A stretch of DNA of 56,986 nucleotides, filler included, from Sphacelaria rigidula (GCA_964200075.2; 6 parts of 6 records of this genome joined end to end with filler, not necessarily neighbours in it), one strand, 5' to 3'; shown: positions 1 to 56,405, counted from the first letter of the whole stretch. The notes: generated by a model from the letters alone, not told the origin. Numbers and translations: made by a program.

Positions 1-129
1 GCATACGGCTAGTCGCTCCATCCCTCTTTCTAGCGGTAATCCCACCACCGCCCACCGCTCCTCTCCCGTCAGTTTTCACATACTCCATCAGTACCCCCCC
101 CCCCCACCCAACCCCGCCGCCCCTGGAAG

Positions 130-1819
130 GACGTTCTCGACGTGGTGCCAAGATTCATGGTCTCCCCGGGGCTGGTCCTCCACGAAGGAGTCACATCGGA
201 CATCGACGCCCGGCATGCCCCCGACGCCTTGATTCTCACAGCCGCTGAAAAAAACATTGATTACTGCACGAGAGCCCTCTTCATCATGACGGACACTGTT
301 GGGGGAAAACGGCGTAGCGACGGCAGCGGCGGTGTTGATGGCGATAGTGGGGACAGTGGTGTTAGTGGTGGCGTTGGAGGCAGTAGTGGCAGGGGAGGAG
401 GGGGGAGGGCACGCGAGGATGCCGAGCACTGGGTTAGACATCGGCGAGATTGGGAAGAAGTCGATGCTTCGGGATTCAGAAGGTGTGTCCAGCCGAGTTA
501 TCGTTTTGTGCTCTTCTTGCATTTATCGCGACGGTTGTGTATTATTTAGGGGATGGTTGTCAAGTGCCGTGTGTAATTTCTTTAAGGTTTCAGCGGTTCA
601 TGCTCTCTGTTCGCATCGATACTATTTTGAATGGTGGCACTTGGGGAGTAGATACCAGATTTCAGTACCGTCTTGTGCTGGCACTACGCATCTACACAAC
701 GTCCTGTACGTACCGGTGTTCTTATACCTAATTAAAAGTGTTATGTGTGTTGAGGAAGTGCAGGGCCACTCTGTGCTATTTCATGCATACAATTTGTTCA
801 TATATTACAAAAGTGTGCCGGCAAAAAGCTAACGCCTGGCTCGTATGGTATTGCAAGTTAATGTTCCGAGTATCGTCATCATCCTATCGACCGCGTTTTC
901 ACGTGTTGAATTCTCACCCACGGCTTGATTTATCACCTGCATATTTTCTTTCCGTCAGCGCCCTGTGCTGAAGAGTTCCGCCCGCATAGCATTCATGTAA
1001 ATTATGTCGTTTTGATATTGCCATGGAGTAAACTATGGTGTGACCTACAATATGCTATCGGTTAGTTGTGGTTACATGCATGGATGGTGTGCGATTTCTA
1101 TACAATGCATAAATTGTGCTAGTATAGCAAAAACGCTCTAGATTAATGCCGAGATAGCCCCCCTCCCAAAAGTGCACCGGAGACCGTCCAACAAACTGGC
1201 TGCGATCCCACTATTGGGCTCGTTTGCAGCACTTTCGCCCACGTGAGAGGTGTGTGGCAGTCAAGAATCAGCTATAATGCCCAAATGAGTCGCGTCGTGC
1301 AGCACGAAACCAGCTCTGACGGCGTTTATGATCATCGCCTCTGTTCACTTTTTTCGCCGGTTCTGGGGGGGGGCTATCTCGGCAGCAGCCTCGACTCATT
1401 GATAGTACTGCCAGTACTGTATGCTTTTCTTCTCTACTGAAACAAATGACAGCATACCATCGTTGGCAACAGCAGGGTTTGATTCCAGGTACATACTCGG
1501 GGTTGCAGACATCTATGCCCCAGCAAGGAAAGGGGATCTTTTGTCAGTCAAAGTGAACAAAAAAATAGACTCCTCATGGACGATATTGACCCGTATTCAT
1601 ATGAGGCTGTGTAAGCGAGGACATTTGAAATTTTGGCCGACCAGTCATGAGCCGTCCTTGTTCCCCGCCGCCCATACACGCGTTAAGGGTAGTATCGTCC
1701 GGTTGTGCTTGTTTCCTATTGCCGTACGTACGATACCTCACTCTGACCTCTCGAGCAAAAGTTTTTTACTGGGTTGGCTCGTCCCCAGGAACGGAAAGGG
1801 TTCAAAGTGCAACATTTAA

Positions 1820-1856
<37 letters not shown>

Positions 1857-4800
1857 CAGACATGCTGCACAGTGTATTCTAATCGTACAAACACTATTAA
1901 TAGCATTTTTCTTTCCTACTCTTTTCAGCACCCCAACAGCGCTTGTACCTTCGACGAATCCTCGTACCTTTCCACGCATGATGCAAACGACCGAGCAGCC
2001 AACGAAAGTGAACATGGGATTGTGAAAACGATAAATGCCTTTTGTTCTCGTATGGGAACGAAAATATTTCGATGGCATTCGGGATTGTGGAAAGTGGTAC
2101 CCCACGACGGCACCTTTGTGGGGCACCATTCTGTTGAACTTGTCGATGGTGTTCGGATTGGTGGGGGATAATACCCCTTGAAGACACCATTGCGGGCACC
2201 GGAGGTTAAAAAACACTTCCTGTGGGGGCTCCAGTTCCCCCAAAGGTATCTCCGAGGAGTACTATTCGAACACCATCGAAATATTCCAAGGATCGGACGA
2301 ATTATTGATTCGTCCGAACACTACTTGATTTTAGTGTAATTGATTCGTACCGTATGGATCAATCCTCAGGGTTTGCTTTCAGCGTTGCAATCCAGGCTCG
2401 CGCAGCTCAGGCCCGTGGAATGGTACAAATATTGCGTGGAGACTTCTTTGATCAGCGGTCAACTTTGTTTTTTCTTTAGAGCAATCAGGTCTGAAAATCG
2501 TGAACTTGATTATTCGAACTGACGATGATTCGTCCGAACCGCGAAAAATCCAACACCAACAGTTCCCTCTAACGTGCCTTGGAGGGGTGTCATCCCCAAC
2601 AAATCCGTACACCATTGAAAACGTTTCGTTCCCGTGAAAAAGAGTTGGTGCCCATTTTTTCAGAATCTCCTGTTAACGTGTGCTTGCGCTGTGGGAGGGT
2701 ATTGTTTACATGATCAACTCGCCGTCAAAGCTAAGACCGTTTTCAACGTGTCGGAATTGATTGGCGAACAAAATGACTTGCAGCATGAGTATCATTTGAT
2801 GGACAAAAAAATGTTGAACCTAAACCGATGACTGGCGAACACACGTCGGTTGCACTGATAGTCCTGCGGAGCGTGTGAAGCACCGAAAAGGGGATCCTGA
2901 AAAACTTGGAAAAACGTTTTTTTTATGGGAACGAATTGAGTCCGGGGTTGAAAATATCACTGCCACTGGTACCCGTCTAACGTAACTTTGAGCTGTTCAA
3001 GGGTAAGGTTGACGGGCATCAGATATGACACTGTCTACAATTCTGACCTCAGTTCGTCCCCGTAGAAAAATCTCCTTCCTAGTTTCCAAGATCCCCTGTT
3101 GTCGCACAGTCTTCGACACATCGTCTACATGTGACAAGAACCCAGGGAGTGCATAACAGAGTGTGATCGGGGCACCTGACACATCGAAGAGTAGGGTGCT
3201 TACTGTGCCAATCCTCTCGTACACCGCACATAGTGAGGGTGCACTTATGATCGTGCATACCGGAATCAGATGACTTTTGGCCTTGCATCCCTACAAAGCA
3301 GGGTCGGAGCACGCCGGGTTTTCGCCGGACTAGTCTCGCTATCACCGATCGCGAAGCGCCGTGATGTGTTGGGCGAGTCGCGTAAAGGGTGGCCGCATCC
3401 TGCTCAGTTTGTTCGGCCCGAAGCGTACTCATTATTATGCATATAAATGACAGCCTCGAATGAGATACTTCATTTTTCTGGTATCACCACTTCCAGACAC
3501 AACTAAGGGTTAGCACCGCCTCATGGGTGTCTCATCATATAAACACTAAGTTATATGAGCTGGGCCGGCCATCAGTGATTTTTGAACGAAGAGTGGAGAT
3601 GCTTTTGGCATTCCGAAGAGTTAGCCGCTGAAATTTTGACAAGACATTTTGATTATCATTCTGCACAACCCTTGGAGGGGTGCAGAGGGAAAAAAAAAAG
3701 AAACGGAAGTTAGAGCGAGTTGAAGTTTCAGCAAAAGCAGGAAAAATGCCAAAACTTCCTCAAAAATTGATCAAAACGATGGCAATTCTGCGGCACATAC
3801 GGGCACTCGCGTCAACCACATCCTTGTAAAATTTTCAGCCAAAAATACGTAAAATTGGGCTTCGAGTGGCATTTTTTGTGTGACCTCGGTGGTCGAACTG
3901 TTACAGCAGCCTCAAATGACACAGGTCACGAATTTGAATCCCGACACGACAAAAATGTTTTTGTGTGCACACTAATCGTACATTCTCTCTCGTACCTCTG
4001 GTTTGCAAAGGGCCTCGATGTTTTGGTGATGGTCTTCCTTTTGGGGGGGGTATAGCGCAGCTTCAAGTAGTACTTCTCCCTCGTGCGGTAATATACGACA
4101 GTTGGCTCGCAAATTCTCTGCCATTTTCGATCTTATGACGCGCTTGGTGTCATCATGCAGCACGACCAATGTGCTCTTGCCTGGGCATGTCAGGTGTGCG
4201 TGTGCCCATGCGGCGCAACGGTCTATCGTAATTCCACCGCATTTTGTGAAACGAAACGTCTCCAGACACGTTATCGCACAAAGAATTGGGACGTACCAGG
4301 TACTCAATGCAGTACAATAACATCGCCGCAAAGAGTGCACCAATCGAGCAGCGGCGGTGCCTTCTATTACCAGATTAGTCTGCAGTTCAGAGCGATATGC
4401 TCAGGTCGTGCTGATTTTAGGAAACTTGAAGAGTTGTGGTGACGACAGAGAATGCTGGGTTTTACTCCCGGCCCAGCTCGTATTATCATCCCCTTTATTT
4501 TCTACCCCCGCACAATATGATCTAACTCGACCACCATCATGACTCCCGTGTAAAAGCGCAACCGAAAAGAAAACCGGTAACCTGGTTGCCTGGATGACGC
4601 AATAAGTGGCGTGGTTTACAGCGTCGTTGCCTAACGACGCCACCCCTCAGGGAGTGGCAAGGGGGGGGGGGGGTGATTCTGTGTGAAGTGACCGTCCTCA
4701 GAGGCATATTGCGACGCGAAAAATTGCATCAAGGACTTTAAACTATCAATACGGGAAATGTTCACAATTCGGTTGTTGGACTGATAACTCCCAGTTTTAC

Positions 4801-5493: not shown

Positions 5494-7177
5494 CAACAAC
5501 AACAACGGCAACAACAAACAAAAACAGGAACAAACAACAGCAGTTACAACAAAATAACGACAAAGACAAACACAAACACAAGCACGAACAAAATAAAAAA
5601 GGATGATCGTGCATTACGTAGCTGATTGCAACACTCCAGCTCGTAATCAGAAACAGAAAGGAGAAACATGAAGAAAAATGAAAGAAAATAAAAAAATAAA
5701 ATGAAAATAGAACGTAAAAAGAAGGGAATACAATAGACAAGAAGATAGAGCCAGGCTCGTTCCGGCAGCGGGGAGGGGAGGGGGGAGGGAAGCACAGGCG
5801 TTCATTTGCTTCCGTCACGTCGATCCTGAGATCACGATCGGATTCGTAGCAGATTAGGTGATGTAAGACAAGCAGTCAATCAATCAGCCATTTCATTTAT
5901 ACGGAGTATTTTATATCAAATTCATACGAAAGGATATCACAAAAACTCAACGCCTATCTTGCACAGTGTTGAATATTTCACGAGAACCTTTGTGATACTC
6001 ATGATATTTCTCGCAACATATATATATATATATATATGGATAATGACCAGATAATTTCCCTCCCACCGCCGCAATTGTGATCGTGAACACGCACAAACAA
6101 GGCTAGCCGTGTACCGCTTGCTGGAGCCTGATGAATACATGAACACGCTAGCGTTCGGGGTGACCAAGCGGGCTGCACTACCCAACACGGCAGCGGTGTG
6201 TGGACGGAGCACGTTTCATTCCGAACAGCGGTGCACGGAGCAGCTTTGCCGAAGGGTGAGCTTTCATTTTAATTATTTTTTCATATTACATTATTCCATC
6301 TCTTGGACGTGTCCCATCGATTGCCACGCACATCCATTATCAGACAGATAATGCAGCAAAATACAATTTAACTTATTGATTTTTTATGTGCCTTCTGACA
6401 AAGTACGACTCAGAACAGGTCTTTAGGAATGGCAATGGTGTTGACTTTCATGAGCTGCTACTTCAAACAACGGGAAACAACTGACGTAGTACGCGGAACA
6501 CTCGACTAAGTCCTAAAAACACCTCTCGAGACGAAAGCATCGTCATATCGTGTTCTCGATATACTAACAGTAATCATCAGAAGGTGTATACTTTGCACAT
6601 TTGTCCTCAACGTTATGTACGATTCATCCTGACGTAGCGCATTTTTGTGTACGCTGTGTCATGCCAAAAATAGTTTTCGCCACTACATATCCGCGAGTGG
6701 TCGTCTGCTGGCAACACATTACTACACGTTACACAACATGATTATTATTTTTCCAGGTAGATTCGCCATGAAGAAACCTCGCCCACTATACTGTAGCCTC
6801 AAGCGATCAAAATCGACGAGGTTTATGTTTTTCAGTGGCCGCTGGTCCCGGGAAAACGGAGGTAAGGTGGATTATGACAGATCATACTATACGACGTGAC
6901 GTTTCAACGTCATGGCTGCGTGTTGCTGTCCGTTGCTTTCGTTTTCTGTCTTTTTTTTTTTTTTTGGGGGGGGGGGTTAAAGAGGACGGCGCGCGACTAC
7001 TCCTACGTAAGCGCTAACGACCAGAATCGAGGACCCAACGACCCCGGCAACTACTCGGTATCATGCAAATACGACCGGATGAAAATGCTCCAGCGAACGG
7101 GACTCGAGCGGTACAATGCCGACATGGCGAGGATAGCGGCGGAGCGCGAAAAACGGGCGAAAGACGCAGCGCTGCAG
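130..7177 (+). CDS. Partial spliced hypothetical protein (three internal exons)
   Basis: Exon ~130-482 (start could be 73): DVLDVVPRFMVSPGLVLHEG...WEEVDASGFR, donor AG|GTGTGT, phase 2. Exon 6102-6255: AAG| g-LAVYRLLEPDEYMNTLAFG...EQLCRR |GTGAG, phase 0. Exon 6983-7177: RTARDYSYVSANDQNRG...EKRAKDAALQ |GTGCAC. Phases are mutually compatible. No domain recognised. Confidence 0.55.
1143..1390 (-). mobile_element. MITE-like element with GCCGAGATAGCC/GGCTATCTCGGC inverted ends (copy 1)
   Basis: Inverted repeats at ~1148 and ~1372. The whole ~245 bp is the reverse complement of ~19620-19870 on another contig. Confidence 0.8.
1819..1842. repeat. (TA)n microsatellite
   Basis: Direct reading. Confidence 0.95.
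2290..2560 (+). repeat. Dispersed repeat (probably a non-autonomous DNA element)
   Basis: Reverse-complement homologues at ~28260-28445 and ~30720-31000. The homology also shows as near-identical spurious ORFs (MIRTVWINPQ... vs MIRTLRINPS...; ...PGLQR twice). Confidence 0.8.
5241..5760 (-). mobile_element. 3' end and low-complexity 3'UTR of an RTE-like LINE with an (ATCA)n tail
   Basis: The minus strand ends GACCACGGGCTGGATTG...TCAGCTAATGTGAGATAATT(AATC)n. This matches the end of the RTE copy at ~16985-17032 (GACCACGGCTGGAT...GACAATCAA). It contains (CAC)n(CAA)n tracts and an internal duplication of the end motif near 5612-5650. Confidence 0.65.
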
Positions 7178-7313
7178 GTGCACATCGAAAACAAAATATT
7201 TGAACAAAAAAAAGCACAGTTATGGGTGCGTCTGACCCTCCAAAATGAGCAAAGAAACTGTAATCGACCAAAGCACGAACAGATCGGAGATCTCGTTCAT
7301 CCCCTGATTATGC

Positions 7314-7388
7314 GGTGCTCCGTCTCGAAAGGGATGCGTGGTCAATGGTCAAATGACTAAGGCAAGCAACAAATGAGTACGCCCCCCC
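7314..7388 (+). mobile_element. 5'-truncated poly(C)-tailed LINE insertion with a 13-bp TSD
   Basis: GGTGCTCCGTCTCGAAAGGGATGCGTGGTCAATGGTCAAATGACTAAGGCAAGCAACAAATGAGTACG-C7, flanked by CCCCTGATTATGC at 7301-7313 and 7385-7397. Confidence 0.9.
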
Positions 7389-7944
7389 TGATTATGCACG
7401 CCGTAAAATCCCCCAAAGTACTTGAGATTAGTGGGGTTTCCACTTGATGGTTTCCCACTTTCGCCGTCCCGGACTACGAACCACGGCGTGCCTCGGCTAC
7501 CCACCGGCGTGTATTTGCCCAAGCTACAATCTGACCGGGTAATTTTACCGAAGAAGTCATATGAGTCCTGATGAAATGAAGAAAATCATTGGGTTAAGTT
7601 GTAGCTGTCGTCTTGGCGCAGATGACGCAAAAAATCGCATCCTAATCGATAGTCTTGGCGATGAGTAATCGGGGCAACAGTTTGGGCTATGAGCGCAAAG
7701 AAGCGCCTCCAACCCTCGCCGGTTTCCACAACACGCGAAAACCTTACCCCTGTCCAACACCCCCGGAATAGATGACACCCATGAATGAGCCGTGATAGTG
7801 CAGATGGTTGATACATCGGATATTTGGAATGTCTAACAGGCGTAGAATTTGAACTTTCGACCGAACCCCCAGAAGCAAGAATCATCTTCGCGACGTCGCA
7901 GCAGCGAAGAGAACAAATAATAACACTAACCCTAACCCTAACAA

Positions 7945-9030: not shown

Positions 9031-9416
9031 TCAACCCAACTTCAACCTAACTAGCCTCCTTGCATTTCAGTACATCGCAAGCGCGGACGAAAAGCGACGC
9101 AGTGGCATGTAATATATGACGAAAAAAAACGGAAATGACGGTAGGGTTCTGATTTTAAAATGCAGTCCACTTTTTCTCGATATGAATTTTGGATCCATGC
9201 CGTTCTCTTCCAATGACGCAAGGCATATTTTATCACACGAGCCTGGACAAGCCCCAGAAATCGGTCTGTTCGTGTATGTTTGTGATTTTGGTCGGTGACA
9301 CTTTTTTCGCCCATTTCGGGGGGCCAGGCGCACCCATAACAGACACTTTCTACGATAGCCCCCCCCAAAACCAGCTAATAGTGTCACGAAAAAAATGGCC
9401 ATACAGCGCCTGAAGT

Positions 9417-9516: not shown

Positions 9517-11241
9517 AAACCTTTTACATATCTTATCCCCGTCCTGTTTCGCCGTCTGTGGCCACCATCTTTCTCCTAGTATAATCATCGTTTTTTTGTT
9601 ACTGTCTGATGCATCAAACGACTTCGTGCCACCTTCGTTATTGTCCCGCATTTCCCCCCCTAGTACGTCCCGTTCCTCCTTTTATGGTTCATATCCTGCC
9701 ACTATATGACTTCTGCTCTCTATTGCCTCGCGACAGGGGCAATTCTGTGCATACACTTCCTCCTCCTTTTGACGACTGGTGAATCTCTCCCTTCTTTGTG
9801 GCAGGCTCAGGTCCCCCACCGGAAATCGCAGTTTCAATTATTTCGCCGCGTCCATTGGGACATGCAAATATATTTTCATCGCTATCCCCTCCCTCAACCC
9901 CTCGTATATCTTCAGGTGTTCTTATTCGTCAACTTTGCGTCTGAGCGCTCCTTTTCCCCTTATTTCGATCATGGCTCTTACTTTGGTCTTGTATCCCGCG
10001 CCTTCACCTATGGACAGTATTTCATCTTGGTTTCCTCCCATCTCCTTCCATACTTTCTCGACTTCGTTATCCCACCTCATTCCAGCCTTCCCTTTCGTAC
10101 TTTTCTTCCATACAGCCTCATCAACTATAGCTGACAATCTCTCTCTCTGCGTGCTCTTCATGTTATGTTGCCTTCGCAATTCCCTCATGTCTGTTAGTCT
10201 TAAGTGAGTACATTCCCAACTCTGCTCTCAATGCTGTATTACTCGTCGTTTTCGAGCATCCAAGTATTTTCTTAGCTGCTGCCATCTGTACTGTTTCCAA
10301 CGTCTTCACCACCTTCACGTTCCCCTCCCATATTCTCCTGCATATTCCAGCGTTGGTACAATCACGTTCCTCAGGATACATCTCTTGATCCTAGTGTCTA
10401 GGAGCGAGTCTCTGAGGATCACGTCCATCCTGCCTGTGCCTCGCCCTTTTCTATTACTTTATTTATGTGTACATCCTAAGAACAGTTATCCAAGATATCT
10501 ACGCCAAGGTATGTATACTGGTCTACGATCGGCAGATCCTCTTCTCCCCACCTCCATTGAACTCGATCGCATTTTCTTATCTTCGTCACAGGCGAGTACC
10601 GCGCATTTGTTAACGCTCGCTGTCACTCTCCATTTCCTAGTGTATTCTAGCGCCTTGTTTATCTGTTTCTGTAATCCTTCTGCTGTTCTTGAAATCCCCA
10701 CAAAATCATCCATGAACATCAATCCTGGTACCATATCTTCACCCACCTTGACTCCTTGCTTTGCTGCTTCTATTACTATTATCAGGTCATGAATAAATAC
10801 CTTGAAAAGAGTGGGTGATAACGTAAATCCTTGTGCAACTCCTGGTAAAATATTTCGATATTTCGATATTTCCCCGTCTAGTATCATGGCACTTGCGGCA
10901 CATTATGTCGTCTTCTTCACCACTCTCCATATATTTCCTCTGATCCTAGTTTCGTACAACTTTTTCCACAACCCATTCCTCCGTACTGGGTCATAAGCCT
11001 TATGCACGTCCAGAAAAAAACAGTATGTTGTCAGCCCGGTGTCTTTCCTACCCTGGAAAATCTTACCTAGTGTGTACATATGGTCTACGCAACTACGGTT
11101 TGGTCTGAATCCTGCTTGCCCCTCGCTGATTTTCTCTTCCTTTTCTAGCATCGTCCCTAGTCTATCATTCAGAATTCTACAGTGTTTTCCCCACCTTGTT
11201 CAGTAGCGTTATCCCCCTATAATTTCCTGGGTCAGCCTTGT
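9517..11241 (-). mobile_element. Degenerate non-LTR retrotransposon ORF2 (reverse transcriptase) of the poly(C)-tailed family
   Basis: RT motifs across frameshifts: KADPGNYRG, GQAGFRPNRSCVDH, FFLDVHKAYDPV, GVAQGFTLSPTLF, LMFMDDFVG. The C-terminal MRDNNEGGTKSFDA...AKQDGDKICKRF is near-identical to 26336-26520. Cut by the contig end. Confidence 0.92.
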
Positions 11242-19619: not shown

Positions 19620-19870
19620 CTGCTGCCGAGATAGCCCCCCCCCGAACCGGCTAAAAACGTGCACGGAAGTGATGATCATAAATGCCGTTAAAGCTGGTTT
19701 CGAGCTGCACGAAGCGACTCATTTGGGCGTTATAGCTGATTTCGGATTGCTACACGCTTCTCATGTGGGCGAAATTGTTGCAAACGAGCCCAATAGTGGG
19801 ATCGCAGCCGGTTTCTCGGGCGGTCTCCGGTGCACTTTTTGTGTGGATGGCTATCTCGGCATTACTAGCG
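19620..19870 (+). mobile_element. MITE-like element with GCCGAGATAGCC ends (copy 2)
   Basis: Reverse complement of 1143-1390. Confidence 0.8.
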
Positions 19871-20809: not shown

Positions 20810-21221
20810 CACTGGATTTTCGAAAAGGGGTTGAAAAAAACATGAGGTTCAACTCAACAGCCGTGCTTTCCCTGATTTAAACTAATGACAAATGACTTTC
20901 ATATGGACGACCCCATCCCTCCCGACCTCCCTAAACCTATTTCGAGGGATTTCCAGCCTTCCGTTCCCCCAAACGGTATGTGCGAAAGCACGGTTTTGGG
21001 GAAAAAACATATTTTTTCATCCCGAAATCAAGGCAAAAGGGTGCTTTCGCACATATCCTTGAGGGAACAGAAGACTAGAAATCCCCGGAAATAGTTTTAG
21101 GGGGGTCGGGAGGAATGGGGTCGTTCGTATGAAAGTCATTTGTCACGAATTTGGGTCAGGGAAAGCACGGCTCTTGAGTTGAACCTCGTTTTTTTTCAAC
21201 CTCGTTTTCGAGCATCCACTA
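20810..21221. mobile_element. Fold-back MITE (~410 bp, ~180-bp arms), copy 1
   Basis: The arms are reverse complements (e.g. ATGTGCGAAAGCAC / GTGCTTTCGCACAT; GACAAATGACTTTCATA / TATGAAAGTCATTTGTC). A second copy is at 27591-28017 and a terminal fragment at 18906-18931. Confidence 0.88.
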
Positions 21222-21299
21222 TTGATTGTGGTTTCATGTATCATGGAGTCTGCTGACACCACCTTGTTCACCTCTGGTAGGGCTGATAGAGGATAACCT

Positions 21300-25518: not shown

Positions 25519-26195
25519 ATGTGGGTTGGGGACCTGTGTAATGCGTGAGAGGACCGCGTGCTTAGGGGACCGCATCGTAGTTCGAAACACCTCAGGATCC
25601 TCATTTTTTCAAACCAATCGGGTCAGTCCCTGCAGTGACCACGTCCCGGAACCTAACCCGAACACTAACCCGGGCCCTAACCCTAACCGTAGGGATGTTC
25701 AAATTCCGATGCGGTCCTCTAAGCACGCGATCCTCTCACGCATTACACCTGGACCTGCCAACAAGGAGGCGGAAATATTATTCCAGTAGTCGAGAGGAGG
25801 AAGTAGATGCACTGAATTGGTCCTGTGGCAAAGCAATAGAGAGCAGAACTCATGTAGTGACAGAACGTGAATATATAAGGAGGAACGGGACGTGCACGGT
25901 GGGAAAATGCGGGGAGTGAACGAGGATGGCATGCAATCGTTTGACGCACTAGACGGTAGGGAGAAAACGATGGCTGCACTAGGAGATAAATGAAAACTAC
26001 AGACAGCGAAATAGGGCGAGGATAAGGTATGTAAAGTGTTTTTGGATAATGTATGGAAGAAACGGAATGAGCGCCGAAATGTTGAAGGTATCTCTACTAT
26101 AAGTGAGAACGGTATGATCCATTTCGAAAGGGACGCATGGTCAACGGTTAAACCAGTAAGGCAAGCAACAAATAAGTACGCCCCCTCCCCCCCCC
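25519..26195 (+). mobile_element. 5'-truncated poly(C)-tailed LINE (tandem copy 1)
   Basis: Degenerate ORF2 C-terminus (SCGKAIESRTHVVTE, a CCHC-like remnant; CKVFLDNVWKKRNERRNVEG). Ends GCAAGCAACAAATAAGTACG plus a C-tract, followed by TGTG. Confidence 0.88.
25537..25747. mobile_element. 211-bp MITE, TGTA...TACA termini, 41-bp TIR, 4-bp TSD (Ginger-like)
   Basis: TIR TGTAATGCGTGAGAGGACCGCGTGCTTAGGGGACCGCATCG with 2 mismatches to the right arm. CCTG is duplicated at 25533-25536 and 25748-25751. Internal CCCTAA-like repeats. Inserted in the LINE. Confidence 0.85.
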
Positions 26196-26199
26196 TGTG

Positions 26200-26672
26200 A
26201 CTTCGGGTGAGGGACCTGTACCTGCCAGAGAGGGGAAAGAGATATATACCAGTAGTCGAAAGGAGGAGGAAGTAGATGGACAGAACTGCCTCTGTGGCGA
26301 AGGAATAGAGAGCAGAAATCATATATATATATATAGTGGCAGAATGTGAACTATACAAGGAGGAACGGAACGTGCTAGAGGAGGAAATGCGGGACGTGAA
26401 CGAAGGTGGCACGAAATCGTTTGATGCATTAGACAGTAAGGAGAAGACGATGGCTATACTAGGAGATAGACGGTGGTCAGAGACGGCGAAACAGGACGGG
26501 GATAATATATGTAAAAGGTTTTGTGTAGTGTATGGAAGAAACGTGATGAGCGCCGGAATGTTGAAGGTGTTCCTATTAGGAGTAGGAATGGTGCTCCGTC
26601 TCGATAGGGATGCGTGATCAACGGTAAAATGACTGAGGCAAGCAACGAATGAGTACGCCTCCCCCCCCCCCC
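26200..26672 (+). mobile_element. 5'-truncated poly(C)-tailed LINE (tandem copy 2)
   Basis: AECELYKEERNVLEEEMRDVNEGGTKSFDALDS...; ends GCAAGCAACGAATGAGTACGCCT-C12, then TGTGCT. CCCCTGTGCT also occurs at 25509-25518. Confidence 0.9.
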
Positions 26673-27114
26673 TGTGCTTTCACAGATCTCGGTTGGGCAA
26701 CTTTCGTAGTTGGGTATTTTTCTGAATTTTCTCGTATATCATTCTTTCTTGGCACTCGGGGGTCCTAGCAATGAAGCAGGTGGCGCTCAGAACACAGCCC
26801 TCAAATCGATGCTGTCGCGATGATAGGGAGTAAGGATCTCGTTTATCAGGAGGTGTTAGCAACGATTATCGGGCCAACAAATACAACTTTTTGGCTCTAC
26901 CGCAAATTAATAGGTGAAGAAAAAAAAGTTATTTACACTTGCTCTTGAGAATGATCGCCATTGGTTTGACCCTCATGGAAGCCTCCCCTCCCATCCCCGG
27001 GCCTAACACCTCATTATTTCAGATTCTGACAAGGAAGAAAAGACGGAGATAGAAAAGACTGAGGTCAACCATTTTACTATGGAAGATCAAAGCAAACTCC
27101 AGAAGCATAAGTCG

Positions 27115-27550: not shown

Positions 27551-27590
27551 CCCCTCCCCCCCATTTTGTGCCTGAAAAAACGTCCATTAA

Positions 27591-28017
27591 CAGTGGATTT
27601 ATTGAAAATGGGGTTGAACACAAAAATGAGCTTCAACTCAAAAGCCATGCTTCCCCTGACCTAAATTCGTGACGAATGACTTTCATACGGAGGGCCCCAT
27701 CCTTCCCGACCCCCCTAAAACCATTTGGGGGGTGATTTATAGCCTTCCGTCTCCGCAAAAGGATATGTGCGAAAGCACACTTCCGTCTCGATTTCGGGGT
27801 GACACAAAGACGTTTTTTGGCCCAAAAATCGTGCTTTCGCACATACCCTCTGGGGGAACGGAAGGCTAAAAATCCCCTGAAATAGTTTTAGGCACGTCGG
27901 GAGGGATGGGGTCGTCCAAATGAAAGCCATTTGTCATGAATTCAGATCAAGGAAAGTACGGCTTTTGAGTCGAACCTCATGTTTTTTTCTTTCAACCCCA
28001 TTTTCGAGCACCCACTG
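27591..28017. mobile_element. Fold-back MITE, copy 2 (CAGTGG...CCACTG)
   Basis: Long self-complementary arms, homologous to 20810-21221. Confidence 0.88.
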
Positions 28018-28259
28018 TTCATCGTAAATCGTCGATTTTTCATCAACGGTTCCAAATGGGTCAAAACCATGCAAAATATCCGAGGGTCAGAACCTGCGGC
28101 TGAGTAGTCGCAGGACCCCCTGGGACCGGTCAAACCGTGAGTGGTTCAATATCCAGCGAGGATATGATTTTGTTTTGGAATGAATGTGGAGCTAATGCTT
28201 GGTATCTCCCGATCGTCAAACTTTGGAATCCCCTGATTCAGCTGGAAACTACCACGGTT

Positions 28260-35390: not shown

Positions 35391-35416
35391 CGGGGGGCGG
35401 GGGGGCGTACTCATTT
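35391..35416 (-). mobile_element. Minimal 3' tip of the poly(C)-tailed LINE
   Basis: Minus strand AAATGAGTACG-C8-G-C6, embedded in C-rich sequence. Confidence 0.65.
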
Positions 35417-37156: not shown

Positions 37157-37275
37157 GGGGGGGCGGGGGGGCGGGGGGGGGCGTACTCATTTGTTGCTTG
37201 CCTTCGCCGTTTGACCACTGACCACGCATCCTTTTCGAGATGAAGCACCTGTCCTACTCCTGATAAAGACACCTT
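37157..37275 (-). mobile_element. 5'-truncated poly(C)-tailed LINE
   Basis: The minus strand encodes GVFIRSRTGASSRKGCVVSGQTAKASNK*, then GTACG plus an interrupted C-tract. Confidence 0.88.
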
Positions 37276-37884: not shown

Positions 37885-37959
37885 GTGCTCCGTCTCGAAA
37901 GGGATGCGTGGTCAATGGTCACACGACTAAGGCAAGCAACAAATGAGTACGCCCCCCCC
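37885..37959 (+). mobile_element. 5'-truncated poly(C)-tailed LINE (contig breaks in the C tail)
   Basis: GTGCTCCGTCTCGAAAGGGATGCGTGGTCAATGG...GCAAGCAACAAATGAGTACG-C8. Confidence 0.9.
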
Positions 37960-41206: not shown

Positions 41207-44104
41207 TTAGATGCAGCACAGTTCGTCGGTGCAGCCCGAAAGAGGGCAATCGTCCCCGGTGCACGTAGAGTCGGGGCACTTGTCGCCATTAGTCTCGGGG
41301 TTGGGGATTTTGCCGGGAGGGCACGCATGGCCCCAGCAAAAGGCAGCGCAGCACTCCTCCAGGGTGCAACCGGTCGTGGGGCACTCGTCGTTCACCGTTT
41401 CAGGGTCGGGGATGTACGGTCCGGGGCAAGCGTAGCCCCAGCAGAAGAAGTCGCAGCATTGCTCGGTGGTGCACACTCCGTCTGTGCACGGAACGTTCGA
41501 TGCATCCGGAATCGGGATCGATCCGGGAGGGCACGGGTAGGCGCTGCACACGGGGGTCGCTGTTGATGGTGGTAGTGGTTATTGATAGCGCAGGTGTTTT
41601 TGTCGCCGTCGTTTGTTCCGGAAATCACGTAAACATGATAAAGGCAGAGGGGCGGCGAGCACACGGCAAAAGTGACGGTCAGTCGAGTAGAGTATGAGCG
41701 ATTGCGAGTGTCTTGAATTAATCGCAACCCAGTTCATTATTATTATTATCCTTGTTATTATTATTATTTCCGTTCAACTGGTTGTAATCCGAGCATGCGT
41801 GGAGTCGTGACGTAAACGACTGTCAAGTCAGGGAGATGGGTGCTGGTTAGGTACGAACACATGCCAGAGACTCATATGAGTAGACTTCGCCGTTGAGAGA
41901 GATATCGCGGGCGTGCAGGCACCTCGAGGAAAGGAAACGGCGGATAAACAAGTGTTTTCCGTAGGCTAGGTGCTGGTTACCCTCTTGTCATCTTACGGAC
42001 GCGCCTCATCGCCCCCATGCACCCTTCAGGACACACAAGCGGCATCGGTACCCGAAAAATGCTTTGGTGCATGCTCTCGTTACTAGCATTGGGTTACAGG
42101 ACGGTGCTGTGAGAAAACAGACATCGTTGCGCCGAGAACACTGCCGAGAAGTAGTATAATGAGAGATAATAACACGAAAACGTGGAAGTGGCGGTATCGC
42201 GTTGACAACGACCTCTCGGGCACAAAATACACCAGCGCTGTGGTGCCAAGGGACACATACGTATGATAAAACACAACACAAAAGTAACCGGATAAAGCCG
42301 CACACAAAACATATACGGGTACTTTGTATCGAGATTCACTTACGGACGGTGCAGCACAGATCGGGCGTGCAACCATCCTCGGGTGGGCACTTCTCGTTGA
42401 CGGTCTCCGAACTGAGATAGCCGATGGTGCATTGGAAGCCCCAGCAGTAGAAGTCGCAGCACTGTTTGATGGTGCAGATCCCGTAGTCGCATTCGGTCGA
42501 ACCCGCGTCCGCAATAGGGATACCGCCGGGGCAGTCAACGCTACTGCAGTAAACCTGATATCAGCGTGAGGGAGGGGTACGGGGTACGAGCGGCCGTAGA
42601 TAGGTGACTTTTTACATGCATTCTTTGCAATTTTTGCTACTACTCCGTGTCATTGAGCAAAGTAGCTATTTCTCCCGAAATGTACTTGGATCGCCTGCAG
42701 TGGCAGCTAAGAACGGAAGCTCGTCGCTGCACTTCTACTTTCCACTCTTAAATACTGCATGTTTTGCAAGTGTTGATGTTGATAAAATATTTTTTTCATA
42801 CCCCCAGCTTCTTCGGGACTAGCCCATTATCTGAAGGGATCAAGCCATCTCTCCCTCGGTAGATGCCTGGCACGTTGGCATCACGGATTCGATCGCCACT
42901 CCTGCACCGCGCTGACGTCAGTCAAATTTGCTTCGATACTCACAGCGTCACGTTTCCAACGACGGAAATCAGATACTTCTCAGAGAAGTACCGGATCTAC
43001 CGGGTTTTGAACCCTCGACTCTGCCGTAAGTAGTTATGAAGGGCGTTCCAATTTGGCGGCGGGGGTGCGAAGATGGTGAAAATTAAAAATCGGGTTTGCA
43101 AACTTCGGGGACAGTTGAGAACAAAGCTTCACAGGACTAGACGGATAAGATGGGACGCTAGGCCAGGCTGCAACGTGTTTTACTGCGGGATTGACTCTAC
43201 TTGGCGAACTTGTGGCTTAGGTTTGTGGATCAACTCACACCTGTCTTTAAATCAGCGACAAACAATGTAATGTCTGCGGTACTTCTTTACCCACTTCCCT
43301 CTAGGCCTCTCCTTCAATCAAGCTACTTGCCAATCTTCTATGGACAGACTAATCTAGAGAGAAGGGCACAGCAATCGACGCTTCGAAATCTTAACATAGA
43401 CCGGTGGAGGCTTTCGCAGTGTTACTAGATAGACATTTGTGGGTATATACAGCAGATGCATGTCCGGCAAACTTTCAACCCCTCCGCTTCCGTGGTGTGC
43501 GAAGGGATCAACTCATCTTTTCCCTGGTGCATGACTCGAATATTTTTATCGCACTTTGGGTCAGCACTCCCGCACCGTGTCGACCCTCGTCGAGTAAACT
43601 ACCTCCTGTGCTGCTCACGTTCTCACGTCTTACTCTACGGAAAACAAGCACTGCTCAGAAAAAAACAAACGAATTGGCCGGGGGTCGACCCATCGTCCAC
43701 CCTGACTGGTTTCACTCGTACCACTTCAACTGAGACCACCAGTACGCAGCTACGAATACATGTATATAAATTTGGTTCCAAGTAGCCCCTGCATGTGTTA
43801 TGGTAACTTGAAGGAATGACGATGAACTATGAGTGCTTGACGCTGGTCCAAAGTACACACATACAACACAAGGGCGTGAAACCATCGTGATTTTGCCTCC
43901 CCTACCTCTCCGTCTCGAAAGGGATGTGTGGTCAATGGTCGAACGACCAAGTCAAGCAACAAATGAGTACGCCCCCTTCCCTCTCCCTCTCTGCAGATAA
44001 ATTGGCTTTTTGATGACTGCGAGTAGAGCGATCACGACTCCTCACCGGTGCTTCGACAATCGTCCCGGAGTCCACCTGAGCGCGCCTTCTAACGTGATCG
44101 CCTC
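41207..44104 (-). CDS. Cysteine-rich repeat protein (six-Cys, ~32-aa repeats), 3' three exons
   Basis: Exon 44104-44046: GDHVRRRAQVDSGTIVEAP. Exon 42554-42344: VYCSSVDCPGGIPIADAGSTECDYGICTIKQCCDFYCWGFQCTIG...CPPEDGCTPDLCCTV. Exon 41559-41207: TPVCSAYPCPPG...CTDELCCI*. All GT-AG with matching phases. The first exon was not found. Confidence 0.88.
43480..43740 (-). mobile_element. SINE-like family B copy (diverged)
   Basis: AAGGGATCAACTCATC and GCACTCCCGCACCG shared with other copies. Minus-strand GGTGGTCTCAGTTG (A-box-like) and GGGTCGACCCC (B-box-like). Confidence 0.6.
43907..43980 (+). mobile_element. 5'-truncated poly(C)-tailed LINE
   Basis: CTCCGTCTCGAAAGGGATGTGTGGTCAATGGTCGAACGACCAAGTCAAGCAACAAATGAGTACG-C5, with C/T-rich flanks on both sides. 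Confidence 0.88.
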
Positions 44105-48536: not shown

Positions 48537-51500
48537 CTCTAAGCGCTCGTTATCATCCACAGTGGCCGCCTCCGTCGCCGCCATCGCATCAGCGTCCACC
48601 ACCAACTCTTTTTGTTCGCTTCCACCATCAACAGCAGACTTCCCCGTCCCAGCTGCACTCCCCTTGCCCTCGACGTCTTCAGAGCTTGCACTGTCGCCGC
48701 CATCCTTACCCCCTGCGCTCGTGACAGAGTTGTTGCTTACTTGGTCGCCGCCGCCGCTGCCACCGGCACTGCTGATGCCATTCTTGGTGATGGCGTCAGC
48801 TTCATCATCCCTCTCGTTGCCGTCACCACTGTGATCACTGCCGCTGATCACGTCGGTACAGACGGTGGCGGTAGTAGTCGTCGTCGTCGTCTGGCCTGCG
48901 GTTTTCCTCATGTTTTCCATATTCGGCGGGAGGGGCGGCATCTTGCCTTTGTCGCACCACACTGCCCATTTCTTGGTTGTTGCGGTGGTGGTGGCGGCTA
49001 TCGCGACAGCGTTACCTTCGGCTGAGACGTCCCCCTCCAGCCCGCCCCTCACCGTTTCGGACGGAGCTGAACCATCCGACGACCCACGTGATCGTGCTGG
49101 ACCAGGCCTATGTGTGGTTGAAACAAATAATTTGATTGACGAGCAGCAAGAAGCGAACGAGTGAGAGGACGAAGGTTAGAATGCGTAGGATGAATGAGAG
49201 GCCAAAACGCTCTTTCGACGTGATGATAAAAGTGTGATGGCATGTTGTGGGATTGAGAGGAACTGGAACGTCGGTGCAAGTTCTGCTGTTACGCCAGCGG
49301 AATCACGTTGGGCGTACGGTTGGTTGTCCTGTCCTTCCAGCCCAACCGCATACGGGTGGCTCGTGCAGCATTGTTTCCCTCGATGGTGCAGGTTGTTGAT
49401 CGCTTGAATGGGAAATAGCTTTGCGAGGAGGGGGCGGGGGGAGGGGGCGGCAACGTGGGGGCACGCTAGCGCAGGCGAATCAAAGAGCGCACCGGCAGAC
49501 GAACGATACCACGAAGGTAGCATCACAAAGTGTCGAGGCCGCGTGTTTCTTTCAGACTTCGGCCCTTTTACTAGGTAACAACCGGCTAACAGCCATAATG
49601 TACCAAGCAAGACAACACGCACACGCAACGGCAACCGACAGTAGCACCATGACACCAATGTAGCAAACGAGTAAGCAGGCACCCTGATAAACAACCCCCA
49701 CCACCCGCACGACGGTCCATCGTCAAATGATTCAGGCAAGCAACAAATGAGTACGCCGCCCCCGCACCCCCATGACATACAACAAATAAACGCAGACATT
49801 ACGCGAATCGAAAAAACACAGGACCAAACTCACCGCCTCGCCATGTACGGATTGATTCCGCTGCGCCGACGCGCCCCCACCTCGATACCACAAAGCCCGC
49901 CCACGGCGCCGCCGCCGCCGCCCCCGACTTCACCCCCACCGCTCCCCCCACCACCTCCCACACCTACCGCACGCCCGCCTCCCGCCACCACAGGCCACGA
50001 CGGCATCATCGCTACGGTACTAGCTTCGCCGCCGCCGCCGCCTCCTGCCGGCCGGCGCTGTTGCGGTTGCTGCTCCCACGAGACGCTCGATACGCGCTGG
50101 GGAAGCTTGCCGACTCCGGTGGGAGTGCAAGGTGCAGAGAGGGATTGTGACGCGCCTGCATCATTGCCGCCATCGCCGACGGCGCCTCCCGCCGCCCCTG
50201 TGGCTTGCTCGCGGGCGTGCATCGACATCACCGCGGCACCGCCGTCGGTGCTGAGTCTGGCCTGGGAATGAGTAACCGGCCCACCGACTATCCCGATATC
50301 GTTCAAGAGCTGGAGGATAACGGTACGCTCGCGGCTGGGGTATCTAGTAGTGGAGCCGCTAGTGCTGCGGGTTGGTTCCCCCCCGGCGGTGGTGGTGGGG
50401 GAATTCGTTCCTGCCAGTGCGTCGAACTGGCTGAACATGTCCAACACTGCTGCAGTGCCGTTGCCTGTGTGCGTGTTTGCCCTCGATCTGGCTGCAGTGT
50501 GTCTACTTGGGGAACAAGCACATGCCCGTGAGGGGGCGGCGAGGGGTGGGGGGGCAGAGAGCGCTTATCAGTGTGTGTACAAGAACAGCTGTTGAAACGT
50601 GGCTTGGGGTCCAAAACGAAGAACGACATACGTGCGAGTCCATGTGTGTACATCACGAAACGCGTGCCATTGCCGACATTATTCTCGGGAGACTCATAGA
50701 TACGAGAATCTCCATTGTAGCCGGCGAGTTCTACGCGACAGAAACCTCTGGCAGAACCTATGATGTGCAGGCCGGTCCCACTTTCTCTTTTTTTCCCACA
50801 CTTTGAACCCCTCCCCTTCCTCGGGATGAGTCTGTGGTCTTAAGGGATCAACCCATCTCTCCCGCACCGCGTTAACTCACGTCACACCAACTCAGTCGAC
50901 TACTTTTGTTCACTCACCTTCTCACGCTTTCCACAGTGGAAACCATACATCACGAAGAAAACCCAAGGCATCGGGAATCGAACACACTGCTTGACGCAAA
51001 CCGGTGTTTCCGGCGCAAATGGGACGAACAGCAACACACGAGAATCGCTTCCCTGCAACCGTATACCCAGCCTGGTGTGTGCCGCGCGCTCTAATATGTC
51101 ATTCAGGACCTTTGAATCATTTCACACGGACTGTCCTGGAACATCAAATACGGTCTGGTAGCAGGTCTGTAGTAGTTTTCAGCTGAAAGAGGGCATTATC
51201 GTAATGTTTTCGTAGTCTGCGATTTTGACTAATTTTTCGCGTGTGCCATCGCTCAGCCCAGTGAACGTTTGATTCCGAAGTTTGGGGATCGGGAGATACT
51301 AGGCATTCGCTCCACATTTTCATACAACAAGCATCCTGCGCTCAATTTTGAACGACTTACGGGCTGAATTGGCAGGGGGTGTTAATGACCGTCCTTGGTT
51401 CAAGACACATTTCTTTTCGGCTCTAGCGCATTGAATAGGGAAACATGAAAAAAAAACAAGTCTGTAAAATTGTTGTCTTGTTGAGAGTCATCAGGATGGA

Positions 51501-54699: not shown

Positions 54700-55118
54700 T
54701 GTAAGGAGTCATCTAGAGCATACTTTGTGAAAACGGGGTAAATCGCATAGCACTCTAACTTTCCCACCGCTGGAGAACACGTCGGTCGGTCATTTTTTTC
54801 TTCACAAAGACACTTATCTACAAAACCTGAGATTAATTCGCCATTTTGCGCCGTACGCTGAAAAACGAACATCTCCTTACGCTTATCTCGGAATGTCGAC
54901 AATACGCAACGGGAAGAACCAATTGCGAGCTAGTGTGATAAGTCAGACACGGTCGTGAAGACTCGATGTAGCAAAATGAAAAAATGATGCAAGTCGAAGG
55001 GCTGCAGGCGTCCCGTCCCGACGCTCAATTACAAAATGTCAGGGACGCACCACGGGGGGGGGGGGGGATTTGACAAGAAAACAAGGGAAGAAGATCCCGC
55101 ACACAAAATAAAAAACAG

Positions 55119-55151
<33 letters not shown>

Positions 55152-56405
55152 TTTGACAAGAAAACAAGGGAAGTAGATCCCTCAGCTCTCTCTCCCTCTC
55201 TCGCCTCCCCCCACCCCGCCCTACAGCATGAGGATAAGAAGATGAGAGTTGCGAAACGAACCAATATTCAATTAACAGTCTAGTCCAGTTAAGCACGGGT
55301 TGGTGAAGTCACGGTCAGTATTGCGTGTGCGGGAAAATAGCTCCTGTATATAAATCGCGATGCGTTGTGTACTGAAGTGTTTTCAACTGCCTCCCCACCC
55401 CCCACCCCCTGACCGTTCCATTCTGAATAGCCTCAAGGAAAAAAATGTACACCATGGCCTCTGTGAGCAGCTGCGTCAGCTTCAGGACTAGTACAACGTA
55501 CATCCACAACTGATAACCAGCAAACGCATCGGGCGCATTTTGCTGAAGAACGTCAATAAAAGCGGTGTGAAGGTCTCCACGAGCAGCTGCACGAACTACA
55601 TACAGAATTGATACAATGCACTCGGGCACTACCCTCGGTGAGCTGTCTCCAGGCAATCCCAAAACTCAGCCGCTTCACCGGTGTTATTTTTTAATAGATC
55701 CCCACATTAGTTCGATCTTTTCTACCCAACTCGCGGTCAACTCGTGCCAGCCAATCTCTTGCAAACAGTAAACATCTGTGCTCCGAGCCTTGTGACACAG
55801 TCTCAAACACCTTAACCAACTTCTGATTCAGAGGTCGGACTACACCTGGCAGCGTAGTCACTGGAATTTAGAGCACCCCCCACCGTCCCGCCAAAATTTG
55901 GGCTGAACTGAATGTTCTCAAATATGGTGCAATCTTATATTTCCATGCCACTCCTTGGAAGAATCACACAAAACTATTTAAAAAATTACAATACCTTGAG
56001 GACACATCTAGGGTCATTTCTGGCAGCGGTCACGCCCAGTATATCTTCTATTCGGCCGTCGGGCATGTTCTGCTTGAGATGTCTCAGCGCGTTCTCTCGG
56101 AAAGGGAAAGACAACTCCAGCTCTTCGAGCAAGGCCTGTGTTTCCTCTCACACGCAGATCAGCCAGGGAAAAACAACACGCAAAGCGACGCGCATCGAAC
56201 AAAACAAAACAACACGGGACATTTCGGGAAGGTTAACGACAAAGGATACGCGCGCTTGGTTGGTATACAAGAAAAGCAAAGACAAAAAAAGCGACATCAT
56301 CAGTGGTTGCTCACGACTCCCGCTATAAATAAAGACCACTACAGGTACGCAGAAGACTGTCTGATCCATACTCATCGACACAGCCGAGGTCCATTCATTG
56401 ACCAT
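54700..56405 (-). pseudogene. Coding-like segments of unknown family (exons or a decayed gene)
   Basis: Protein-like stretches separated by stops and frameshifts: ALLEELELSFPFRENALRHLKQNMPDGRIEDILG (56135-55995), GVVRPLNQKLVKVF...LFARDWLARVDRELG, GDLHTAFIDVLQQNAPDAFAGYQLWMYVVLVLKLTQLL (55586-55414) and FVFQRTAQNGELISGFVDKC. Confidence 0.4.

Follow-up and report, generated by a model that had tools for sequence, protein, structure and literature searches.

A LINE family of the brown alga Sphacelaria rigidula with C-runs in place of poly(A) tails

Introduction

The tail of a LINE is the handle by which its reverse transcriptase (RT) finds template and primer. To our knowledge, LINE tails are either poly(A) or short tandem repeats. 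At 7301–7397 of the Sphacelaria rigidula DNA studied here, a short insert ends in AAATGAGTACG and runs straight on into C. Where does such a C-run come from: the target site, the enzyme, or the RNA of the element itself? We approach this question through the other copies of the family in the window, that is, the whole stretch of 56,986 nucleotides that was analysed (GCA_964200075.2; six segments of ~9.4 kb each, with N spacers between them), and through relatives in other assemblies.

Copies in the window and their 3' ends

The motif AATRAGTACG has nine exact matches in the window. When up to one mismatch is allowed there are 15 matches compared to 4.7 expected, a number reached in 0 of 100 shuffles. 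Eight of the nine exact matches are 3' ends of one family (7372+, 26171+, 26648+, 35406-, 37182-, 37942+, 43962+ and 49746+). They are spread over five segments, and a C-rich run follows directly after each. The ninth match (3424-) is followed by CTTCGG, has no C-run and no further homology, and is probably a chance match. A tblastn search with the 132 proteins collected turned up no further LINE family in the window.

Copy boundaries were set by BLAST against L004, a full-length relative found on a metagenome contig. The eight copies with a 3' end keep 11, 42, 64, 67, 68, 93, 439 and 463 nt of the element. At the locus that raised our question, the 71-nt insert (7314–7384) consists of 68 nt of element and CCC. 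The element part (7314–7381, plus strand, 97% identical to L004) is 5'-truncated and holds the last 20 codons (GAPSRKGCVVNGQMTKASNK), the TGA stop and GTACG. The CCC (7382–7384) lies between the element's end and the duplication and is a part of the tail that is not derivable from the target. The insert is flanked by perfect 13-bp target-site duplications, CCCCTGATTATGC, on the left (7301–7313) and on the right (7385–7397), and the first C bases of the duplication merge with the tail, just as a sequence-only reading of the window had described it.

A tandem pair of copies occupies 25742–26676 on the plus strand. The older copy, 5'-truncated and about 79% identical to L004, extends from ~25742 to 26180 (439 nt), ends in AAATAAGTACG and carries the tail CCCCCTCCCCCCCCC (26181–26195). 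The second copy (26195–26657, 463 nt, 83% identical to L004) sits within this C tail, with CCCCCCCCCTGTG (C9TGTG) on both sides of it as a perfect 13-bp duplication. The left duplication (26187–26199) overlaps the initial CTGTG of the copy, a microhomology, and the right one (26664–26676) lies in the copy's own tail, CCTCCCCCCCCCCCC, which is then followed by TGTG (26658–26676). The sequence-only reading had listed this pair as 71-nt pieces at ~26120 and ~26590; the 3' ends were there, the short lengths were not.

The remaining copies are short. On the minus strand there is an 11-nt remnant, AAATGAGTACG (35406–35416), with C-rich DNA on each side and the tail C7GC6 (35392–35405). A copy had been noted here at 35391-, and its family end and C-rich tail are real, with only 11 nt of the element behind them. 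Also on the minus strand, a 93-nt copy (37182–37274, 88% identical to L004) has the 29-nt tail C9 G C7 G C7 G C3 (37153–37181) and a possible 6-bp duplication, CCCTCT. The plus strand carries a 67-nt copy (37885–37951, 97%), whose tail of at least C8 (37952–37959) is ended by the segment boundary; a 64-nt copy (43908–43971, 91%), after which come C5 and a C/T-rich stretch with no clear tail end or duplication (43972–43992); and a 42-nt copy (49714–49755, 88%) with the tail CCGCCCCCGCACCCCC (49756–49771).

One longer copy is degraded (9518–11241, minus strand, more than 1.7 kb). It extends from the RT towards the C-terminus, with RT motifs and an FMDD box as well as frameshifts and stops, and the segment boundary removes its 3' end. 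RVT_1 is found in it at 10486–11199(-) with E values of 1.7e-10 and 8.9e-9. That this RT copy belongs to the family, as had been proposed from its C-terminus, is borne out by 83% identity to L004 over 1735 nt. The truncation points of the copies vary and two of them have perfect 13-bp duplications, in agreement with the earlier attribution to target-primed reverse transcription (TPRT). The evidence supports a LINE family with 5'-truncated copies that were inserted with target-site duplications.

Relatives of the family come from other assemblies. Scanning metagenome contigs with a 19-nt end pattern gave six loci (L001–L006). Three of them are family members, with the tails C8GCACCTCC (L001), C10 (L004) and CCTC7TCCTCCC (L006). 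The other three (L002, L003 and L005) have no family homology and no C-run and are chance matches. A protein-profile scan of genome contigs yielded a further full-length copy, L007, with the tail C13. The L007 contig lies in a bacterial bin; it and L008 are eukaryotic LINE contigs under bacterial labels and are likely mis-binned algal DNA. In viral contigs the 3'-end pattern had 0 matches.

All 12 family ends (eight in the window plus L001, L004, L006 and L007) consist of AAATGAGTACG and an immediate C-rich run of 5–31 nt, and poly(A) was found at 0 of the 12. The original observation of eight C-run ends on five contigs is thus complete for the window (8/8) and extends to the other assemblies (4/4). 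By one simple rule, the tails in the window measure 5, 7, at least 8 (segment end), 10, 14, 15, 15 and 31 nt. They are (C)n with scattered G or T, and one can be read as (C7G)3.

The element and its protein

Two homologous proteins, P0003 (1360 aa) and P0004 (1328 aa), end in ...NGAPSRKGCVVNGQMTKASNK, with TKASNK last. The translation of 7314–7373 is identical (100%) to residues 1341–1360 of P0003. Since these are the last 20 residues of the protein, the TGA in AAATGAGTACG is the stop codon. Hence, the conserved 71-nt end is made of the last 20 codons and the stop, and the 3' UTR is GTACG (5 nt) plus the tail. The coding end of the element reads ...AAC AAA TGA GTACG. The same arrangement is found in L004, where an intact ORF of 1412 aa (119..4357, minus strand) is followed by GTACG (114–118) and C10 (104–113).

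The full-length relatives encode a single protein of 1360–1412 aa, with an RRM-like N-terminus, an AP endonuclease, an RT and a CCHC motif. Pfam finds RVT_1 in P0003 and P0004 (E 1e-30 to 2e-32) and Exo_endo_phos in P0003, P0004 and P0015. The endonuclease is seen in full-length relatives only because all copies in the window are truncated before it. The CCHC motif, which we read off the protein sequences, has the form C-x-C-x8-H-x4-C and lies about 100 residues from the C-terminus. At E <= 10 neither the first 230 aa nor the last 360 aa gave a Pfam hit.

The first ~95 residues are conserved among the relatives (residues 52–150 of the L004 ORF, L004 3908–4204, minus strand; L007 1068–1364). 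A model of this N-terminal region has the order beta-alpha-beta-beta-alpha-beta with a mean pLDDT of 78. Foldseek gave no match to it at E <= 0.001, and in a wide structural search (VIA) 35 of the 50 best rows carried titles of RRM or RNA-binding domains. We call the modelled domain RRM-like rather than a proven RRM, because the best hit of that search is middling (Z 6.6, rmsd 2.6 A, 71 residues).

Of the solved structures, human L1 ORF2p comes closest to the RT core (E 6.6e-21), with R2 nearly equal (8.8e-20). For the RT fragment, the closest named proteins come from Ectocarpus sp. CCAP 1310/34 (unnamed products, 54–68% identity). Source names, the ESM Atlas and a PDB sequence search gave no clade for the element.

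The element is at least 5.15 kb long, since homology between L004 and L007 begins near the start of the L004 contig; neither contig reaches the 5' end of the element. A duplication of 8 bp, CCTTATCA, was considered for the full-length L004 copy and rejected, because host contigs span the point and L007 is homologous across it. Upstream of the ORF, L007 has about two tandem units of ~60–75 nt (1–200; ...GACATAGACAT.AAA.TACT.AACTAACCAGTTTTTTTT...), and the contig starts inside them. By analogy, these units are reminiscent of repeated 5' promoter monomers.

For the last 67 nt, an RNA fold is predicted that consists of a closing stem, GUGCUC/GAGUAC, and two hairpins. The stems are kept among copies, and the loops, and with them the encoded residues, vary. 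Folding energies are no better than those of shuffled sequences (z -0.29, -0.45, -1.07, +0.09, +0.62 and -0.71). Covariation among eight distinct, 91%-identical sequences amounts to one double change, and 422–428 of 500 shuffles scored as high. Paired cells make up 91% compared to 31–45% when the structure is slid along, a comparison in which the structure was derived from the same sequences. We treat the predicted structure as a lead, not as a finding.

Origin of the C-run

The simplest explanation for the C-runs would be that they are all target. The element could be a tail-less, site-specific LINE that ends in ...GTACG and inserts only into existing (C)n/(G)n tracts. C-rich DNA does lie on both sides of most copies: the 20-nt 5' flanks of the eight copies contain 83 C in 160 positions (52%, against a background of 25%), a count that none of 20,000 random sets attained, which also upholds the earlier remark about C-rich sequence at the truncation points. 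C/G runs are common in the window (57 kb), with 64 of at least 6 nt and 8 of at least 10 nt. In addition, C-runs precede the ~66-nt units described below in at least 396, 365 and 324 contigs of three sequencing runs of the host (X1, X3 and X4).

Three observations speak against a target-only origin. First, the copy at 7301–7397 lies in unique DNA where the site offered only C4, preceded by T in the upstream copy of the duplication, whereas the 3' junction has C7, a gain of 3 C. Second, the 15-nt runs around the 26195 copy, CCCCCTCCCCCCCCC and CCTCCCCCCCCCCCC, have T at different places and are therefore not one tract that was duplicated whole. Third, C10 in L004 and C13 in L007 are each followed by unrelated, non-C sequence. 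These observations show that at least part of the C-run arrives with the element and does not come from the target alone, and they make the target-only explanation very unlikely in our judgement.

One could also argue that the enzyme makes the tail. The RNA would then end in ...GUACG, and the RT or another terminal transferase would add G to the nicked DNA before jumping to the RNA. Untemplated addition is known for LINE reverse transcriptases, and adding G at the nick would result in similar DNA. The wide range of tail lengths (5–31 nt), the scattered non-C bases and the fact that in no case was the downstream flank of a source copy seen to be carried along all fit such a process. Against it, interruptions recur at the same offset in different loci. 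The tails at 49756 and in L001 share ...CCCCGCAC, with GCAC at the same offset (C8GCAC), and the tails at 26658 and in L006 both start with CCTCCCC. Templated copying fits these two pairs better. Furthermore, untemplated addition needs neither duplications that start with C nor C-rich targets. We consider it unlikely, if somewhat less so than an origin from the target alone.

The shared interruptions are a thin hint, drawn from the tail sequences, that tails may be inherited or copied from RNA. Slippage on a short terminal template would produce a pattern such as C9 G C7 G C7 G C3.

The duplications agree with an element-borne tail that meets C at the target. Two of the eight window copies have a clean duplication, CCCCTGATTATGC (which starts with CCCC) and CCCCCCCCCTGTG; both begin with C, as had been expected for the 5' ends of target-site duplications in this family, and both merge with the tail. 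One more copy has the possible 6-bp duplication, and in the others none can be called in the low-complexity, C/T-rich DNA around them.

Several C-runs and repeats of the window lie apart from recognisable family ends. The runs of at least 10 nt start at 94, 4661, 6966, 22912, 26661, 28605, 55054 and 55120, and seven of these eight are not beside such an end. Such runs could be insertions of nothing but a tail, or they could belong to other families as tails. AGTAC precedes the run at 94, and at 6966–6991 (minus strand) A15 follows directly after C11. At 55054–55200 (minus strand) two copies of a 33-nt sequence, GGGATCT.CTTCCCTTGTTTTCTTGTCAAAT, unrelated to the LINE, stand 21 nt apart and are followed by C31 and C14. 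Possibly a second retroposon family with poly(C) tails ends in this repeat, in which case the tail would be common to several families.

Other repeats in the window include one of ~245 bp at 1144–1388 and 19620–19864 (87% identical), also present at 9359, which has inward-facing GCCGAGATAG plus C6–9 at both ends and, with no relation to the LINE, resembles a small element of the hairpin type. Likewise unrelated are palindromic repeats of ~420 bp (20813–21234 and 27578–28025), which are 73–82% identical to one another and to their own reverse complements.

Abundance, truncation hotspot and arrays

Of eleven sequencing runs, all present as contigs and three of them (X6, X7 and X11) RNA only by guess, four were mapped on L004 at a likeness of at least 80%: X1, X3 and X4, which are DNA runs of the host, and X6. 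From 4,559,685, 5,464,531, 4,333,584 and 398,575 records read, 111,791 (X1), 130,775 (X3), 81,380 (X4) and 7,405 (X6) contigs mapped. About 2% of all contigs of the three host runs thus belong to the family. Contig depth over L004 is greatest in the last ~340 nt.

Many of these contigs come loose from L004 just past its C10: at least 1636 in X1, 1571 in X3, 816 in X4 and 128 in X6, with 36, 33 and 59 more loose ends of X6 at neighbouring places. The consensus of the loose ends continues beyond C10 with 13–18 more G on the opposite strand (agreement 0.37–0.43), a figure that overstates the typical tail length because the consensus is a plurality (agreement 0.37–0.48). Among the loose-end consensus rows listed, none has a T-run (poly(A)) next to the G-run.

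A second place where matches stop is position 179 of L004, 66 nt from the element's end, which is reached in at least 396 (X1), 365 (X3) and 324 (X4) contigs. Upstream of these truncations the consensus is 25 or more C (G on the opposite strand). In the window, too, the 5' starts of three copies fall within 5 nt of each other (4929, 4931 and 4934 on the reverse complement of L004). There is a truncation hotspot ~66–71 nt from the end of the element.

Among the joints listed, those that go back by 72–79 nt (from 179 to 104–108) occur in 84 (X1), 80 (X3), 38 (X4) and 4 (X6) contigs. Together with the ends at position 179, such joints mean that a unit of ~66 nt plus C-run is arranged head to tail. 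One X3 contig has a joint from 291 to 104 with telomere-like CCCTAA-type repeats between the truncated copy and the tail of the next. The head-to-tail arrays are explained by repeated insertion into older tails; template switching or DNA-level amplification could also produce them. The coding nature of the conserved end, the hotspot and the arrays are features that the sequence-only reading had missed.

Could the whole pattern be a satellite? The ~66-nt unit and its C-run might be a minisatellite derived from the LINE end and amplified by unequal exchange or slippage. In its favour, joints with a period of 72–79 nt recur in dozens of contigs in each run, some of them with high word depth, and the units have 5' ends that fall within about 5 nt of one another. 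The short units of the window are nevertheless dispersed singletons in different segments, one of them with a perfect 13-bp duplication in unique DNA, and copies from 11 nt to more than 1.7 kb have the same 3' end and tail. Amplification of this kind could explain the arrays only, and as an account of the family it is extremely improbable.

The abundance of the family has practical consequences. Tools that seek poly(A) miss the family's ends, and remnants of 11–70 nt stay unmasked. The copies also place very many G-runs in the genome, which may give rise to G-quadruplexes, polymerase slippage and broken assemblies.

A model of insertion

We think it likely that the copies belong to a very abundant brown-algal LINE of the AP-endonuclease type that has a C tail, starts TPRT from G and targets its own tails again. 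Insertion would begin with a nick of the bottom strand where G is present. The G-ending 3' OH would pair with the RNA's C tail, priming cDNA synthesis, which would mostly abort early, with the hotspot about 66–71 nt from the end. A break of the second strand 13 bp away would then leave a duplication with C as its first base that runs into the tail. Under this model every C-run would make a good target, so older tails would be hit again, giving head-to-tail pairs and arrays.

Pairing of G with C as the priming step, a tail copied from RNA and the preference of the endonuclease are the inferred parts of this model. It had been proposed from the start that a poly(C) tail of the RNA anneals to a nicked G-rich strand. 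The C-run as part of the insert, the duplications that start with C and the C-rich targets agree with this proposal, in which the RNA-encoded tail is putative.

More tentatively, and at less than even chances, the model can be taken further. The start of TPRT would have switched from A:T to C:G pairing, with an RNA whose C tail does not come from polyadenylation and with nicks ending in G as primers. The element's own tails would be its favourite targets, and the arrays would consist of a structured ~67-nt module that is both the last 20 codons and the RNA handle of the RT. Many thousands of G-runs would have been seeded in the genome in this way.

A C tail in combination with G-ending nicks would test the rule of microhomology between tail and primer outside L1. 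A further puzzle is by what route a transcript of RNA polymerase II would acquire a 3'-terminal C-run, or retain one.

Comparison with known systems

A search of published papers found no report of poly(C)-tailed LINEs. For Ectocarpus, CRE, RTE, RTE-X (7 families, 16,418 copies) and 'unknown' LINEs have been described; the main text of that study gives nothing on LINE tails, and the 'terminal motifs' of its Fig. 1C and its Supplementary Material 3 may bear on novelty (PMC12477816). The parts consulted of the E. subulatus preprint (10.1101/307165) and of the Saccharina paper (PMC4421812) hold nothing on tails either. There is a fair chance that the family is already in a brown-algal repeat library, perhaps with its tail noted.

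Microsatellite-specific LINEs of the R1 clade (Waldo, Mino, Kibi, Koshi and Dong) have their copies inside simple repeats. Copies of the present element likewise lie in simple repeat, with the repeat on both sides. In contrast to the microsatellite-specific LINEs, it inserts where there is only C4, adds extra C and keeps no fixed register.

UnaL2 of the eel is an example of a stringent-type LINE. Such elements combine a 3' stem-loop with a tail repeat (PMC3747384), and our family similarly has a conserved ~67-nt 3' module beside a simple tail. Here, however, the module is inside the coding sequence, and its predicted structure is without significant support.

Zepp nests into its own tails. It is an (A)n-tailed L1 of Chlorella (PMC3747384). 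New copies in old tails and head-to-tail clusters are common to Zepp and the present family, with poly(A) in Zepp and poly(C) here.

The element resembles RTE and RTE-X of Ectocarpus in that one ORF encodes both AP endonuclease and RT, the 3' UTR is very short and the simple tail is not poly(A). It also has a brown-algal host in common with them, and its nearest named homologs are from Ectocarpus (54–68% in the RT). RTE proteins are generally shorter than that of this element, which differs as well by its C-terminal CCHC motif. Tails tabulated for green-algal RTEX elements are (CA)n, (CAA)n, (CCAT)n, (ACAATG)n and (CTTGTAA)n, and (TTG)n for plant RTE (PMC3747384, Table 3). Hence the RTE and RTEX tails in that table have units of 2–7 nt and include no (C)n, whereas the tail here is a repeat of one base (PMC3747384).

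With L1 the family shares an AP endonuclease and an RT, heavy 5' truncation, a homopolymer tail of variable length and a duplication that starts with the tail base and merges with the tail. It differs from L1 in that the tail is C instead of A (poly(A) at 0 of 12 ends), in having one ORF with an RRM-like N-terminus and no separate ORF1, and in its 3' UTR of 5 nt. A polyadenylated transcript, as in L1, could not supply the C tail. The family has the machinery of a LINE and follows L1 in the logic of microhomology but uses another base, an unusual twist on a known copying mechanism.
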